IMG/VR virus record: IMGVR_UViG_2778261418_000017 | Strand: one strand, 5' to 3' | Length of the DNA: 4,384 nt | Source of the DNA: a virus | Taxonomy: Duplodnaviria; Heunggongvirae; Uroviricota; Caudoviricetes | Shown: in pieces, positions 173-4,246 of the stretch | Layout: every line of letters begins with the position of its first letter | Position numbering within the stretch: the stretch's first letter is position 1 | Translations under genes and position numbers: made by a program | The notes under the pieces: model-generated | Database searches by the model: none | Told to the model about the DNA's origin: nothing | Seen by the model: only the letters and a program-made list of their open reading frames with translations

Positions 173-538
173 TCACTCACTCTCAATTTTGTAAATCTTC
201 ACGCCCAGCCGCCCCCCAGGAACGCGCTGACCGCGCACAATATTGATTTCATCAAACTGCTCGTCGTCTATGAGAAGTCCGGCATGCGTCAGCGCATCCA
301 GTGGAGCTTTCAGGATATTGTCCAGGTCACGACGACGTTTATCCGGTGGCTCTGCAATAATTTTTATTGCCAGCCTTCCGGACAGGTTCAATTTCAGTCG
401 CTGCTGGCGAACAATGAGCGCCACATCACGGCGATAACGCTCACCGGCTTTTGATACAAAATATGTACTGCCACGACGTCGCCAGTAGGTGTTCACCGTC
501 GGCGGGTAAGGCAAAACAAATTCTATGCGTTCAGTCAT
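173..538 (-). CDS. rusA: RusA-family Holliday junction resolvase (crossover junction endodeoxyribonuclease), prophage-encoded
   Basis: 121-aa ORF. The translation (VNTYWRRRG...YRRDVALIV...RRRDLDNILKAPLDALTHAGLLIDDEQFDEINIVRGQ) matches the RusA family as I recall it, about 120 aa with a conserved acidic DxD/DD...E core. ATG at 538-536 directly abuts the TGA stop of the upstream gene (541-539). Confidence 0.8.
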   Translation of the reverse strand: MTERIEFVLPYPPTVNTYWRRRGSTYFVSKAGERYRRDVALIVRQQRLKLNLSGRLAIKIIAEPPDKRRRDLDNILKAPLDALTHAGLLIDDEQFDEINIVRGQRVPGGRLGVKIYKIESE

Positions 539-1597
539 TCATGCTTTCCACTTCAGGACACCCGAATTTCTCGCGTGCATTAAAAAACGAATCAGCAACA
601 ACAGCTGGCTGCCGTGTTTTTCTTCAAAATCTTTTACCCCGGCGTGCAGTTCGTTATGACATTTACGGCACAGCGGAATAACAAACAAATCGTCAGTCTT
701 TGTTCCCATCCCTCCCAGTCCATAGCCAATGATGTGATGCGGATCATCTGCCTGATTGCCACAAGTCATGCATTTCTGCGTTTTTACCCAGCGCGTGTAT
801 ACGGGCATCTCTTCCCGCTGTGGTTTCTGACGCTGGAGATACTGAGTCGGAGACTCCGGATCAACGGCAATGCTGACCACCGTCTTTTCCTGTGGTGGGT
901 TCTGTTGCTGGTGGACGTGAGGCGGTAACGCAATATTTTTTGTGCGCTGCTTCAGCATGCTGGTGGCGGTCGGTTCTCCCGGTATGATGTCGCTTTCGCG
1001 GTACACTGAGCGGATTTTTTCCGCACGTAACCCCAGAGAACGACGTAATACTACCTCCGGTAGTGCGTCCGCCACCTGATTGCAGACAGCCCACCAGGAT
1101 AATTCAGCCAGCGATAATTCCCGCTCCTGCGCGCCATTCATTACATGGCGTATGACGTCAATCATCCATGCTGACAAATTTTGGTGAGCAAGTTGCCCGA
1201 GTGATTCGGAGGTCTGGTCACGCAGCTGGTTGTCGCAGTGCCAGCACAACACCATTGCGCCGGTACCATATCGGTGAATAACGGTTTCGCTGTGATGATA
1301 ATCGCCGTGTGGCCACTGGCAGGATTTGACATGACGCAACAGCCAGTCAGACAGTGCCCCAGCACCACCAGCAGCACGAATCACCCGCTCATCGCTGAAA
1401 AATGGCAGTAATGATTTATCCTCCGCCAGCGGCTGGCGAACAGCAGGAACGACTCCGGACGGCAGACCGCGCATGCTTTTCGGTTCCGGCTCCACCAGAA
1501 CTCGAGGGTTATGAAATACCTGCATGGATTCACGGCCCGGTTTTAGCACCACCAGCCCAAGTTCCGGTACCGGAACAGGTCGAAGTAATACCCGCAC
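539..1597 (-). CDS. YdfU-like prophage protein (DUF968-type) with C-terminal HNH-like zinc-finger motif
   Basis: 352-aa ORF with a GTG start at 1597-1595, preceded by a strong Shine-Dalgarno (CTGGAGGTAAC-GTG on the minus strand). The C-terminus CMTCGNQADDPHHIIGYGLGG...LCRKCHNELH has the CxxC...HH...CxxCH layout of HNH-type nuclease zinc fingers. Size and position between a small protein and rusA/Q match Qin-prophage ydfU as I remember it. Confidence 0.65.
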   Translation of the reverse strand: MRVLLRPVPVPELGLVVLKPGRESMQVFHNPRVLVEPEPKSMRGLPSGVVPAVRQPLAEDKSLLPFFSDERVIRAAGGAGALSDWLLRHVKSCQWPHGDYHHSETVIHRYGTGAMVLCWHCDNQLRDQTSESLGQLAHQNLSAWMIDVIRHVMNGAQERELSLAELSWWAVCNQVADALPEVVLRRSLGLRAEKIRSVYRESDIIPGEPTATSMLKQRTKNIALPPHVHQQQNPPQEKTVVSIAVDPESPTQYLQRQKPQREEMPVYTRWVKTQKCMTCGNQADDPHHIIGYGLGGMGTKTDDLFVIPLCRKCHNELHAGVKDFEEKHGSQLLLLIRFLMHARNSGVLKWKA

Positions 1598-1598
1598 G

Positions 1599-1877
1599 TT
1601 ACCTCCAGATGCGTTGCTGGTATGTGCGGGATGAACGCGGTGGGCGTTCGGAGTAAGGGAGTCTGACTGAGATTATCCAGTGACGGTAGTCGAGGCTAAG
1701 AGCTTTCTTAACCTCGTATCCGCGCCTGCGGTAACACTGAATTATCCATTCCGCCTGCTCTTCAGTGCATGGAGGATGCTGGAACCAATCTGATTTGAAT
1801 GCGTGAAAACGCCGTCCGCACCTACTGGCAAAGACGGCAGAATCATTAGAATTGTGTAATTTGGTATCGTGCGCCAT
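1599..1877 (-). CDS. Small prophage protein of unknown function (92 aa from the internal ATG; the longer 119-aa ORF to 1958 is less likely)
   Basis: Open frame ending in TAA at 1601-1599, three nt before the GTG of the next gene. The longest ORF start (1958) would make the terminator T-tract code FFPGF, so I prefer ATG at 1877-1875 (MAHDTKLHNS...). It occupies the position that rem has downstream of hokD in Qin-type prophages, but I cannot confirm identity from memory. Confidence 0.45.
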   Translation of the reverse strand: MAHDTKLHNSNDSAVFASRCGRRFHAFKSDWFQHPPCTEEQAEWIIQCYRRRGYEVKKALSLDYRHWIISVRLPYSERPPRSSRTYQQRIWR

Positions 1878-1950
1878 CGGTTGTCTCTGCTGGCGCAGCA
1901 GGTGCCAGTTGTTCAGGCTGGCGTGCGGATTGTAAACCAGAAAGCCCGGA

Positions 1951-1976
1951 AAAAACAAAACCCGCCGTAGCGGGTA
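1951..1976 (-). terminator. Rho-independent terminator downstream of the HTH-ImmA gene
   Basis: On the minus strand the sequence reads ACCCGC-UACG-GCGGGU followed by UUUUGUUUUUU: a GC-rich 6-bp stem with a UACG tetraloop and a T-tract (plus coordinates 1961-1975 stem-loop, 1951-1960 tract). It lies immediately 3' of the stop at 1980-1982. Confidence 0.7.
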
Positions 1977-1979
1977 TGC

Positions 1980-3083
1980 TCAAACAATCTGAAAAATATT
2001 TCTTGGATTTGTAATAGGTCGATTGATGGAGAACAACTCACGAATTAAATCTTGACTCAAGCCAGTTTTCATAAGAATGCTTAACCAAGTTGCATCATCC
2101 AGCATGTCAATCGCTTCGGACAGCATACTTGGTTCTTCGGGGCGCAAAAGTTCATCACCAGGTTCAACTCTCGTGTACCCTCTAGAATTAAGATGCATAT
2201 AGCCAGTTCTTGCCTGTTCCTGGGTCAATAGTCCTAATGCACTGGCTCGATAAATACACATTTTAAGGCTAATTTTCCATCTAAGCTTAAATTCAACCAG
2301 AGCACTCCAATCGAATTGCTTACCTCGTATTCGTGGAAATTCTTTAATGAAAGATAGCCTAGGAACCAATAATGCGCTAGAAAAGTGATCAGCTTGTGAT
2401 TCCGTAAGTTTATCACCAGTAGTTATGCCCTCATGCATTACTAAATGCCCTAACTCATGACCTAAATCAGAGCGAAATCTACATATGCTTTTTTTTACAT
2501 TGTTCCTGATAATAACAGGCCTGTTATTGTGAACAGTGAATGCATCAACACGATCATCGACTCCCGTAACATGCGCAACGATTACCCCCAAACTCTCCGC
2601 CAATTTCACCATTGATGATATAGGGCCAAGACCTAGATTCCATGCACGGCGACAATCTTCTGCCACTCGCTCAATATCATTCGGGGTAAGTAATTCAGTT
2701 CCGGGGTGCTCTGGTATGTTGACATCAGGGAATTCGATTTCACCTTCAACAGCAGAAATTATAATATTAAGAATCTCAGCCCTGGCCAAGACACTATTAG
2801 TCAGCGTTTGAGTCCTGGACTTCTTACTCCGAAAATGGCAAACATCGCTTTCCAGAGCATATTTTCGCTCAGTAAATAGAAAATCGGACTTAATCATAAG
2901 AGCTGAGGCTATTAACTCCAAGCATCGCTCTGATGGCCTAAATCCCTTCTCCAATTTGCTAACGAATTGCTTTGTTTTGCCAATTTTTTCGGCCAACTCT
3001 TCACATGAAAGCCCAACAGCCATTCTTGCTAGTTTGAGCTTATCGCCTCGATACTCAGTGAAGTTATTCACCTGATGTTCCAT
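1980..3083 (-). CDS. Fusion protein: N-terminal XRE/Cro-C1-type helix-turn-helix DNA-binding domain plus ImmA/IrrE-family (COG2856, M78-like) zinc metallopeptidase domain with C-terminal extension
   Basis: 367-aa ORF. Residues about 14-70 (LKLARMAVGLSCEELAEKIGKTKQFVSKLEKGFRPSERCLELIASALMIKSDFL) follow the canonical XRE HTH pattern. Residues 209-213 are HELGH (plus 2445-2459), in the context SDLGHELGHLVMHEG typical of ImmA/IrrE peptidases. Shine-Dalgarno-like GAGCAG precedes the ATG at 3083-3081. AT-rich codon usage. Confidence 0.85.
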   Translation of the reverse strand: MEHQVNNFTEYRGDKLKLARMAVGLSCEELAEKIGKTKQFVSKLEKGFRPSERCLELIASALMIKSDFLFTERKYALESDVCHFRSKKSRTQTLTNSVLARAEILNIIISAVEGEIEFPDVNIPEHPGTELLTPNDIERVAEDCRRAWNLGLGPISSMVKLAESLGVIVAHVTGVDDRVDAFTVHNNRPVIIRNNVKKSICRFRSDLGHELGHLVMHEGITTGDKLTESQADHFSSALLVPRLSFIKEFPRIRGKQFDWSALVEFKLRWKISLKMCIYRASALGLLTQEQARTGYMHLNSRGYTRVEPGDELLRPEEPSMLSEAIDMLDDATWLSILMKTGLSQDLIRELFSINRPITNPRNIFQIV

Positions 3084-3714
3084 TACTGCTCACATCCAAA
3101 TTTTTATCCTTCGTACGCCGACGAAGAGACACCTTATTAATCTCCGCTTCGCCAGGGAGTGTGTTACCGTCAAGGGACATAAGTGGCATTGATGCTGTAG
3201 ATTGATGAGAAACCATACTAATCTGAGCACCATAGGTATTAAACCCAACAAGAGCCACCTCCCAACGAGGCAGTGTGGACTCTAATTCACCATCTCCCTC
3301 TTCGGATAAAAATGGCTCCGCTATGACTCGCCATGTAATATCTTGCTCAGCCTCAACATCACCAAACAATGAAAGCTGCTCATGCTCTACTTTATTTCGA
3401 CGCAGGCGATGTTTCTTTTTGGGGTTATTAATGCAATCTTTGGTAAATTGTAGCGGAACTTTATTTAAAGCAACTACATAGTCCAACCCCTTGGAAATCA
3501 TCTTAAGACCAGGAATTGCGCCTTCATTTTGAATAAGATGGTTTCTGACCCAATCATAAGCCCTTACACCTTCAGACCAGTTGCTGTCTAATACGTGCTT
3601 ATGATAGTACAACTGCTCAAGTACGTTAGCGATCTCCGCCAACAACTGGCGAACATTGCTTTCAGCAAGATAAGGTTGAAATTCCCAACAAGGAGCTAAC
3701 TGATTTTCATTCAT
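3064..3714 (-). CDS. Hypothetical protein, 216 aa, no recognisable family; first gene of the two-gene cassette
   Basis: Long uninterrupted ORF, antisense only to a short shadow ORF. ATG at 3714-3712, TAA at 3066-3064, overlapping the downstream HTH-ImmA start by 20 nt. Contains a basic stretch PKKKHRLRRNK (residues 98-108, plus 3391-3423) flanked by acidic segments. I recognise no catalytic motif. Confidence 0.7.
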   Translation of the reverse strand: MNENQLAPCWEFQPYLAESNVRQLLAEIANVLEQLYYHKHVLDSNWSEGVRAYDWVRNHLIQNEGAIPGLKMISKGLDYVVALNKVPLQFTKDCINNPKKKHRLRRNKVEHEQLSLFGDVEAEQDITWRVIAEPFLSEEGDGELESTLPRWEVALVGFNTYGAQISMVSHQSTASMPLMSLDGNTLPGEAEINKVSLRRRTKDKNLDVSSNGTSGE

Positions 3715-3744
3715 TTCAAGTTTCGCTTTTTTTAGAATTCGTAA

Positions 3745-3778
3745 ACCTTATATTTTCGCATTTTCCTGTTTTTGTCAA
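3745..3778 (-). promoter_or_regulatory. Putative sigma70 promoter for the two-gene cassette
   Basis: On the minus strand a perfect -35 TTGACA (plus 3773-3778) is followed by A/T-rich candidate -10 hexamers (AAATAT at 17-nt spacing, or TATAAG at 20 nt), about 40 nt upstream of the ATG at 3714. The -10 assignment is ambiguous. Confidence 0.4.
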
Positions 3779-3793
3779 CCAGACTAATGCATA

Positions 3794-3811
3794 AACCCGC
3801 CGAAGCGGGTT
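3794..3811 (-). terminator. GC-rich stem-loop (UUCG tetraloop) downstream of hok; probable terminator or 3' stabiliser
   Basis: Plus sequence aacccgc-cgaa-gcgggtt. On the minus strand this is AACCCGC-UUCG-GCGGGUU followed by UAUGCAUU, a moderately U-rich tail. It is nearly identical to the hairpin at 1961-1975. Confidence 0.5.
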
Positions 3812-3850
3812 ACGTGCGGGTGCGTTGAGGATGCCTGCCACATCAGAGGT

Positions 3851-3872
3851 GGCGAGGGATTTCTCCCTCGCC
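3851..3872 (-). other. Perfect 9-bp stem-loop immediately 3' of the hok stop (hok mRNA 3'-end structure)
   Basis: ggcgaggga-tttc-tccctcgcc is a perfect inverted repeat with a 4-nt loop, starting 8 nt after the hok stop codon. It has no T-tract, so it is more likely an mRNA 3' structural element than a terminator. Hok mRNAs are known to carry structured 3' ends. Confidence 0.5.
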
Positions 3873-3879
3873 TGGTCTC

Positions 3880-4035
3880 TTACTCCTCAGGTTCGTAAGC
3901 TGTGAAGACAGCGACCTCCGTCTGGCCGGTTCGGATTCGTACCTCGCAGAGGTCTTTCCTCGTTACCAGTGCCGTCACTATGACGGTTAAACAGATGACG
4001 ATAAGGGCGATTAACATCGCCTTTTGCTGCTTCAT
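3880..4035 (-). CDS. hokD: Hok/Gef-family small membrane toxin (type I toxin), HokD/RelF-like
   Basis: 51-aa translation MKQQKAMLIALIVICLTVIVTALVTRKDLCEVRIRTGQTEVAVFTAYEPEE matches E. coli HokD as I recall it: single transmembrane helix, conserved Cys, acidic tail. Strong Shine-Dalgarno AAGGAG lies 9 nt upstream of the ATG at 4035-4033. The ORF track shows an in-frame 19-codon upstream extension (ATG at 4092). Confidence 0.85.
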   Translation of the reverse strand: MKQQKAMLIALIVICLTVIVTALVTRKDLCEVRIRTGQTEVAVFTAYEPEE

Positions 4036-4156
4036 AGCCTGCTTCTCCTTGCCTTTCGGCACGTAAGAGGCTAACCTACATTTGTGAGACATAGATTGGG
4101 CCTCAGATTAATGTTAAGCGTCCTGCAAGACGCGTAATGTTAACTGGGGCTTTTCT

Positions 4157-4193
4157 CTATCTGCCTTTTGGTGTTCATGCCTGAGGCAGATAG
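4157..4193. promoter_or_regulatory. 9-bp perfect inverted repeat (ctatctgcc ... ggcagatag) in the hok upstream leader; candidate RNA structure or operator
   Basis: ctatctgcc at 4157-4165 is the exact reverse complement of ggcagatag at 4185-4193, with a 19-nt spacer. A second overlapping imperfect hairpin is tgaggc-agata-gcctca at 4182-4198. It sits where the hok mRNA 5' regulatory region would be. Confidence 0.3.
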
Positions 4194-4246
4194 CCTCAAG
4201 CACCCGCAGCAATTCTACTTAACTCTCCTTTTCCCGCAAACCGTTT

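Follow-up and report, generated by a model that had tools for sequence, protein, structure and literature searches.

The window analysed here, a stretch of 4,384 nucleotides (nt) from a Caudoviricetes virus (IMG/VR record IMGVR_UViG_2778261418_000017), carries a two-gene cassette between two near-identical GC-rich hairpins, designated copy A and copy B, downstream of a hok/sok locus. The cassette is a RosmerTA pair, a putative defence moron residing at a recurrent insertion site that is defined by the hok terminator, and as such it represents a known kind of element (moron, mosaic junction) and an outcome of ordinary module swapping. The hairpins are probably two working intrinsic terminators of one common phage type, the moron having been joined to its present neighbours by crossovers inside the shared hairpin in exchanges between lambda-like phages. 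The features on which the argument relies are as follows (aa, amino acids):

1599–1877, minus strand: orf92 (phrog_1212), the conserved gene that comes first after the insertion site
1958–1975, minus strand: hairpin copy A, putative intrinsic terminator of the cassette (stem 1960–1965/1970–1975; loop UACG; U-tract encoded by 1950–1959)
1980–3083, minus strand: rmrA, RosmerTA antitoxin-type protein of 367 aa (PADLOC RmrA PDLC03943, E 3.7e-105, nearly full length)
3064–3714, minus strand: rmrT, RosmerTA toxin-type protein of 216 aa (PADLOC RmrT PDLC03929, E 3.5e-25, residues 7–206 of 216; phrog_5786, E 4.8e-83)
3715–3792, minus strand: leader and promoter region of the cassette (block TGGTTGACAAAA at 3770–3781 with the -35-like TTGACA at 3773–3778; spacer GACTAATGCAT at 3782–3792)
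3793–3811, minus strand: hairpin copy B with the loop UUCG, predicted to be the stem-loop (terminator) at the 3' end of the hok mRNA
3818–3830, minus strand: fbi-like element of the hok mRNA (CCUCAACGCACCC), pairing with the mRNA 5' end (4194–4205) in the predicted minimum free energy (MFE) fold
3880–4035, minus strand: hokD-type Hok/Gef toxin gene, 51 aa (Pfam HOK_GEF, E 3e-23; annotated as hokD in RefSeq at homologous loci)
4030–4205, minus strand: hok mRNA leader/sok region (Rfam RF01794 sok, 121.7 bits with a gathering score of 59, E 2.1e-28)

Two terminator hairpins around a RosmerTA cassette

The minus strand is the sense strand of all genes in the window, and the transcript order is hok/sok, hairpin copy B, the 216-aa open reading frame (ORF), the 367-aa ORF, hairpin copy A, orf92, DUF968/HNH and RusA. 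A repeat search returned the sequences at 1958–1975 (AAACCCGCCGTAGCGGGT) and 3793–3810 (AAACCCGCCGAAGCGGGT) as a direct repeat with 17 of 18 positions identical and in the same orientation, the sole mismatch between the two 18-mers being located in the loop. Searching the window for the 17-mer with up to two mismatches yielded just these two sites, and shuffled windows contained 0.01 matches on average, with two matches being reached in none of 200 shuffles. Hence, the hairpin pair with a shared 17-nt core that had been reported in a preliminary description of this DNA is real. The coordinates (1961–1975 and 3794–3811) and the UACG and UUCG loops given there are correct, and so is the placement of one hairpin downstream of the cassette, that is after rmrA, and of the other upstream of the promoter region and downstream of hok, that is between the hok 3' untranslated region (UTR) and the TTGACA box. 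The excess over shuffled windows does not prove common descent of the two hairpins, because terminators with this exact 18-mer are very common in phages (see below). On the transcript, copy A (1975 to 1960) reads ACCCGC-UACG-GCGGGU and copy B (3810 to 3795) reads ACCCGC-UUCG-GCGGGU, both loops belonging to the UNCG class. Folding of 41-nt contexts predicts a stem of 6–7 bp capped by the tetraloop, at -15.3 kcal/mol for copy A and -15.1 kcal/mol for copy B.

Copy A is located 4 nt past the rmrA stop codon (1980–1982) and was called terminator-like in a terminator scan: its 6-bp stem, including five GC pairs, is followed by UUUUGUUUUUU, which amounts to the GC-rich stem-loop plus U-run of an intrinsic terminator. 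Judged from stem and U-tract, copy A should terminate rmrTA transcription before it enters orf92, the DUF968 gene, rusA and, in related loci, Q. As to copy B, folding of positions 3790–4205 as one RNA yielded an MFE structure in which the 5' end GGGUGCUUGAGG (4205–4194) pairs with 3818–3830 and copy B is left as the last, 3'-terminal stem-loop. Gerdes and colleagues reportedly described such tac-fbi pairing in hok mRNAs, and the predicted fold agrees with this architecture. The 5'–3' pairing thus leaves copy B as the terminal stem-loop, as in hok mRNAs, which argues that copy B belongs to hok. The locus combines a Hok/Gef ORF and a match to the sok/leader RNA with the predicted 5'–3' pairing and the hairpin that follows it, as expected for hok/sok. 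A hairpin of the copy B type follows the hok 3' UTR in 129 oriented hok contexts, which comprise the yield of an IMG/VR scan for hok 3' UTR plus hairpin, the window itself and E. coli loci. When the whole window was scanned with Rfam, the sok/hok leader was the sole match and the hairpins fell into no family.

The U-run following copy B is just UUUAU in the window, as compared to UUUUUG in other cassette-bearing loci and UUUUGUUUUUU at sites without the cassette. Position 3792 is T in the window and A (AATGCAAAAACCC) in the other cassette-bearing loci listed, corresponding to a change of the U-run from UUUUU to UUU. The U-run of copy B is therefore shortened by the insert together with this point change, and in this allele, transcription of hok probably continues into rmrT. 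A different variation of the hok terminator was seen in three IMG/VR contigs (L163, L225 and L202), in which the loop contains an extra palindrome of 24–29 nt, e.g. CCCGCCGAA-ACGCTGAGAGATCACAGCGATGG-GCGGG, resulting in a longer composite hairpin.

The genes of the cassette overlap by 20 nt. RmrA combines an N-terminal helix-turn-helix (HTH) domain of the XRE type with a Peptidase_M78 (ImmA/IrrE) domain carrying a HELGH motif (Pfam HTH_3 and Peptidase_M78; phrog_2439), and the rmrT product was assigned to no Pfam family. By its profile matches, the cassette appears to be a RosmerTA toxin-antitoxin/anti-phage pair, the ImmA-protease antitoxin class of which is discussed in PMC10440598. Upstream of rmrT, the block TGGTTGACAAAA proved invariant in an alignment of RosmerTA modules from six different contexts, and the adjacent spacer GACTAATGCAT is homologous in five of these six. 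Inspection of the promoter region by eye revealed a perfect -35 TTGACA and poor -10 candidates; a sigma-70 consensus scan of 3740–3790 returned no promoter and no good -10 at standard spacing. The cassette between the hairpin copies has a low GC content, ~0.38–0.47 versus 0.50–0.59 in the flanks. Neither the cassette nor the rest of the window encodes a transposase, integrase or reverse transcriptase, as judged from ORFs, Pfam and PADLOC. Among complete E. coli genomes, 237 of 5426 contain the cassette, and its identity among E. coli carriers is at least 99% in 9, ~94% in 224 and 80–90% in 5. No match to the cassette DNA was obtained among the INPHARED phage genomes. In the plasmid collection, the two E. 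coli matches represent the same prophage context, and the remaining ones, in Acinetobacter and Spartinivicinus, are weak and cover short rmrA-like stretches.

The hok-terminator site with and without inserts

Sites lacking the cassette provide the comparison on which the argument turns. In E. coli DCE7 (L002) and HD12480 (L003), hokD is followed by one hairpin and no cassette (...CCAGGAAAAAACAAAACCCGCCGAAGCGGGTTA(A/C)GTGCGGGTGCGTTGAGG...). The left flank of this single hairpin, consisting of the T-tract and the region upstream of orf92, equals the flank of copy A in the window, and its right flank, the hok 3' UTR, equals the flank of copy B. Thus, the check for a single hairpin at cassette-free sites, which the preliminary description had proposed, turned up one copy with hybrid flanks in L002, in L003 and in IMG/VR contigs. 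The gap between hairpin and orf92 measures 97–98 nt in 53 of the 129 hok contexts. Absence of the unit from close relatives at the same position, as expected of a moron, is therefore documented by L002, L003 and these 53 contexts, and the deviating base composition of the cassette is likewise that of a moron.

Inserts of at least six different kinds were found in the interval that separates the hok hairpin from the next conserved gene. The hairpin does mark a moron insertion site, as had been suggested, and the comparison of loci points to a site that is used recurrently. RosmerTA cassettes of the window type are located either directly upstream of orf92 or upstream of a rem-like gene (L008–L010), and in the latter loci the left flank of copy A is that of the rem-type empty site L006. 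More distant RosmerTA subtypes also occupy the site (L155, RmrA 43% identical; L208, 32% identical and matching different PADLOC models), and these two are likewise framed by exact copies of the hairpin. In ~40 viral contigs (L139, L233, L187, L198, L136, L280–L327), the hairpin bracket downstream of hok contains a 0.85-kb Fic/Doc (Phd/Doc-like) cassette that encodes a Fic/Doc-family protein of 161 aa with the motif HPFANANKR (Pfam Fic, E 1.6e-11), preceded by an ORF of 59 aa; this Phd/Doc-like pair is flanked by exact hairpin copies. A split HTH plus ImmA/IrrE pair lies between 23-nt exact repeats in L005 (2265–3640) and L125, the proteins being of 119 aa (helix-turn-helix according to RefSeq, no Pfam match) and 158 aa (ImmA/IrrE peptidase). 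Another 0.33 kb at the L005/L125 site contains a terminator-like hairpin of its own. In L004 (2282–2900; also L154, L180, L204, L210 and L232), a gene for a signal-peptide/lipoprotein-like protein of 130 aa, for which no Pfam match was obtained, has replaced most of a RosmerTA cassette: what is left is copy A together with ~100 nt from the 3' end of rmrA, and the 5' arm of copy B is broken (AAAAAACGCCGAAGCGGGT). Finally, rem-like and other inserts, in which orf92 is located 379–478 nt from the hairpin, account for ~40 loci with a single hairpin, and the rem-type junction in L006 has no second hairpin.

Among the 90 contexts of at least 2.6 kb, one hairpin is present in 64, two exact copies in 14, and a distal copy together with a damaged proximal copy in 6. 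The repeat common to paired copies measures 18–23 nt depending on the cassette (18, 20, 22 or 23 nt). The Doc cassette and its distal hairpin are joined to at least four different downstream sequences, and two of these distal flanks also adjoin the hok hairpin directly elsewhere, namely that of L139 in L133 and that of L233 in L148 and L207. At these joints, the hairpin is the only shared sequence. Further downstream, L133, L135, L148, L207 and L233 exhibit additional boundaries with an AACCCGC/GCGGGT stem and the loops TCAATGG, ATAAA and TCGAAGG, followed by the conserved TCTGGTAAAGTTCATGCGC.

The hairpin is by no means confined to hok. A scan of IMG/VR for the exact 18-mer returned at least 125 occurrences, of which at least 106 are not beside hok and have 104 different flanks, and nearly all of the occurrences listed are flanked by an A-run on the side where it would encode a U-tract following a UUCG or UACG loop. 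The exact 18-mer thus appears to be a generic, very common phage terminator, and the caveat of the preliminary description that such stems are common was justified. Given these at least 106 places, hairpin identity alone proves little, and the case rests on flank comparisons. The cassette was also sought elsewhere with the same hairpin, as had been proposed. RosmerTA relatives (RmrA 90–92% identity) occur in five non-hok prophage contexts, and in all five a hairpin with the same stem is located right after rmrA, with the loops UAUAU, CAUUG, UUCG, UGCUU, UGCAU or UUCAU. In four of the five, an in-register hairpin lies 14–17 nt upstream of the TGGTTGACAAAA block, and in the alignments, homology to the window does not extend beyond the outer edges of the hairpins. 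In most of the non-hok contexts, the RosmerTA module is thus organized as hairpin-promoter-rmrT-rmrA-hairpin, and the spacer at 3782–3792 belongs to this module and not to hok. Relatives of the Doc cassette outside the hok context often have an exact ACCCGC-UUCG/UACG/UCCG-GCGGGU hairpin downstream. In E. coli KL53 (L007, 2300–2325), the exact copy A sequence including the T in the loop (AAAACCCGCCGTAGCGGGTT) was encountered in a different lambda-like prophage at an unrelated position, where it is flanked by a DNA methyltransferase remnant and by dinI and lies 150 nt from the RosmerTA terminator of that prophage.

Origin of the hairpin pair and of the surrounding window

In the window, copy B has kept its hok flank and is followed after three U by the spacer of the module, and copy A lies between the module and the original hok U-tract with the orf92 upstream region. 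This composition of the flanks, together with the linkage of the spacer to the module, places both junctions inside the hairpins. The preliminary description had envisaged either duplication of the hairpin or recombination through it; the latter fits better, whereas the former must contend with the fact that the RosmerTA family has such hairpins in other contexts too. According to the history we favour, the terminator type in question, a UNCG tetraloop on a 6-bp ACCCGC/GCGGGU stem, would be shared by copy B, which would end the hok mRNA, and by copy A, which would end a self-contained rmrT-rmrA toxin-antitoxin/defence moron. The single hok terminator of the recipient would have been joined on one side to the upstream hairpin and spacer of the module, and on the other side to the module's own downstream hairpin. 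The product would have the order hok-hairpin-cassette-hairpin-T-tract-orf92, in which the original U-tract would now serve the cassette terminator. Since lambda-like genomes are syntenic, no more than two successive single crossovers between phages would be needed, and the assembled unit may then pass from one prophage background to another through ordinary homologous recombination between the conserved flanks. Selection would ensure that every insert ends in a strong terminator, as the downstream early lytic genes (orf92, DUF968, rusA, then Q in related loci) must stay silent in the lysogen. The hairpins, the empty site, its repeated use, the identity of the cassette and the hairpin-bounded modules elsewhere are what we observe; what we infer is that the hairpin provided the homology for the crossovers and that the terminators persist for reasons of insulation. 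The favoured history corresponds to the ‘sites of limited homology’ view of mosaicism, which PMC3945230 sets against illegitimate joining, diverged-sequence exchanges being mainly ascribed there to phage recombinases.

Several points weigh against this history. The shared homology measures just ~16–23 bp. Moreover, the IMG/VR contigs come from many E. coli isolates and cannot be counted as independent observations. Over ~1884–3812, the window shares 99.3% identity with L001, and over 1590–1927 it has one mismatch to the empty-site loci. These limits of identity place the breakpoint of the latest traceable exchange in conserved DNA 50–90 nt left of copy A; this exchange did not use the hairpin. 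An attempt to locate a crossover in copy A from maps of mismatches between the window and L001 or L003 was given up because of this breakpoint. In addition, the L004-type junction inside the 5' arm of copy B is an illegitimate joint. Finally, as the terminator is so common, selection for intact modules (hok mRNA folding, downstream lytic silence) could set the boundaries at hairpins without the hairpin promoting recombination.

The latter thought is at the heart of an alternative that combines convergence and selection. Here, the cassette was joined illegitimately beside the hok terminator and brought its own terminator, which happened to be the same ubiquitous UNCG hairpin, and recombinants that broke a unit were lost. 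The abundance of the 18-mer in at least 106 non-hok places with 104 different flanks is in line with this idea, as are the same-stem terminators of RosmerTA and Doc relatives in unrelated contexts, and the L004-type junction in the hairpin arm indicates that illegitimate joints occur at the site. However, both junctions of several unrelated cassettes are located inside the hairpin, tandem terminators, filler sequence and remnants of a flank are absent, and the original U-tract always follows the distal copy. Moreover, the repeat exceeds the stem in the L005, L155 and L139 types (20–23 nt), and distal flanks are identical with and without cassette, the hairpin being the sole sequence shared at the joint. 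Convergence combined with selection is considered unlikely.

A more specialized role of the palindrome would be that of a dedicated capture site: the hok-terminator hairpin would be used as single-stranded or cruciform DNA by a phage recombination function that takes up toxin-antitoxin/defence modules of the form hairpin-promoter-genes-hairpin. Red/RecT-type annealing or the neighbouring RusA/DUF968-HNH nucleases may provide this function. If true, the region downstream of hok would be an integron-like acquisition locus of lambda-like prophages, but we consider such a specialization very unlikely. Hairpin-recognizing mobile systems do exist, e.g. integron attC sites, IS200/IS605 and group II introns that insert after terminators, and several unrelated two-gene cassettes at one site, each between direct copies of one palindrome, would also be compatible with target-site duplication by an active hairpin-targeting insertion, be it transposon-like, by integron/attC-like capture or via a circular cassette intermediate. 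Against this stand the lack of a transposase, integrase or reverse transcriptase gene in cassette and window, the variable repeat length (18, 20, 22 and 23 nt), the failure to find terminal inverted repeats, and the absence of arrays of three or more exact hairpins within 2.6 kb, and on these grounds a transposon or integron was rejected. In addition, the hairpins of non-hok RosmerTA modules have the same stem with different loops and some modules are without an upstream copy, as would be expected of ordinary terminators rather than of a recombination site, and ~40 loci carry rem-like and other single-hairpin inserts, with the rem-type junction of L006 being devoid of a second hairpin. Target-site duplication is accordingly given very little credence. 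Lastly, a prior tandem duplication of the hok terminator (e.g. by replication slippage) with later insertion of the cassette between the copies would yield two identical copies with exactly the observed flanks, but it was rejected as extremely improbable since an insert-free tandem hairpin pair occurs in none of the 129 hok contexts and the cassette family has same-stem hairpins in non-hok contexts.

Beyond orf92, the window contains the following genes:

539–1597, minus strand: DUF968/HNH protein
173–538, minus strand: RusA

Related E. coli loci run on into DUF1133 or Q-type antiterminator genes, and by this homology the window represents the region upstream of Q in a lambda-like prophage. 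When the whole window was compared with complete E. coli genomes, no match exceeded ~92%. The divergence from the best E. coli match is patchy, with ~35% mismatches at 501–900 within the DUF968 gene, and beyond position 4200 the window is unrelated to this match. The window is thus a mosaic of several prophage lineages.

Relation to known systems

Phage morons, reviewed in PMC3594210, are defined by their own promoter and their own terminator. The cassette conforms to this concept (Juhala/Hendrix) as an added unit of deviating GC content that has its own terminator and a candidate promoter region, lies between conserved lambda-like prophage genes, is absent from close relatives and encodes, by profile match, a host-benefit or defence function. 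It differs in that its point of insertion is resolved to single nucleotides within the terminator of the hok mRNA, and in that hairpins with one sequence in common form the boundaries on both sides. In lambda-like prophages, accessory and defence genes may be sought in the interval from hokD to orf92 (ydfU side). With RosmerTA (PADLOC RmrT/RmrA), the cassette shares the toxin-first gene pair, the antitoxin-type protein with HTH and ImmA/IrrE (Peptidase_M78) domains and strong profile matches, although RmrT matches here one model only and with a moderate E-value of 3.5e-25. The hok/sok locus agrees with the hokD type of the Qin prophage in its Hok/Gef ORF, the Rfam sok/leader match, the tac-fbi-like 5'–3' pairing and the terminal hairpin. 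In contrast to that system, the U-run of its terminator is cut to UUU by the insert and the change at 3792, which likely allows read-through into rmrT.

The hok site resembles integrons in having promoter-proximal cassettes at one hot spot and hairpin-forming repeats in the same orientation. However, the repeats are terminators of 16–18 nt and not attC sites of 57–141 nt with R''/L''/L'/R' boxes, and the cassettes have their own candidate promoter block whereas integron cassettes are promoterless. Features of attC sites and integrons are thus lacking, and neither the window nor its annotated neighbours encode an IntI-type integrase. Likewise, the fixed length, transposase and defined ends that characterize target-site duplication by a transposon were not found. 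A word of caution follows: a matching pair of GC-rich UNCG hairpins alone is no evidence of duplication, so common are they in phages.

The closest parallel to the junctions themselves is provided by lambdoid mosaic exchange at short boundary sequences (PMC3945230), in which different modules are likewise joined at a short shared sequence and synteny is kept. What sets the window apart is that the shared sequence is a functional terminator hairpin, and that with 16–23 nt it is shorter than the homologies tested there. Downstream of hok, at least five unrelated toxin-antitoxin/defence cassettes have no sequence but this terminator hairpin in common at their joints, and the recurrent hairpin bracket around several such cassettes is the part that deserves attention. 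It offers a nucleotide-resolved case for an old question, namely whether mosaic joints form at short shared sequences or form at random and are then filtered by selection, and with matched empty and filled versions of the site at hand in several genetic backgrounds, this question becomes testable in phage crosses.

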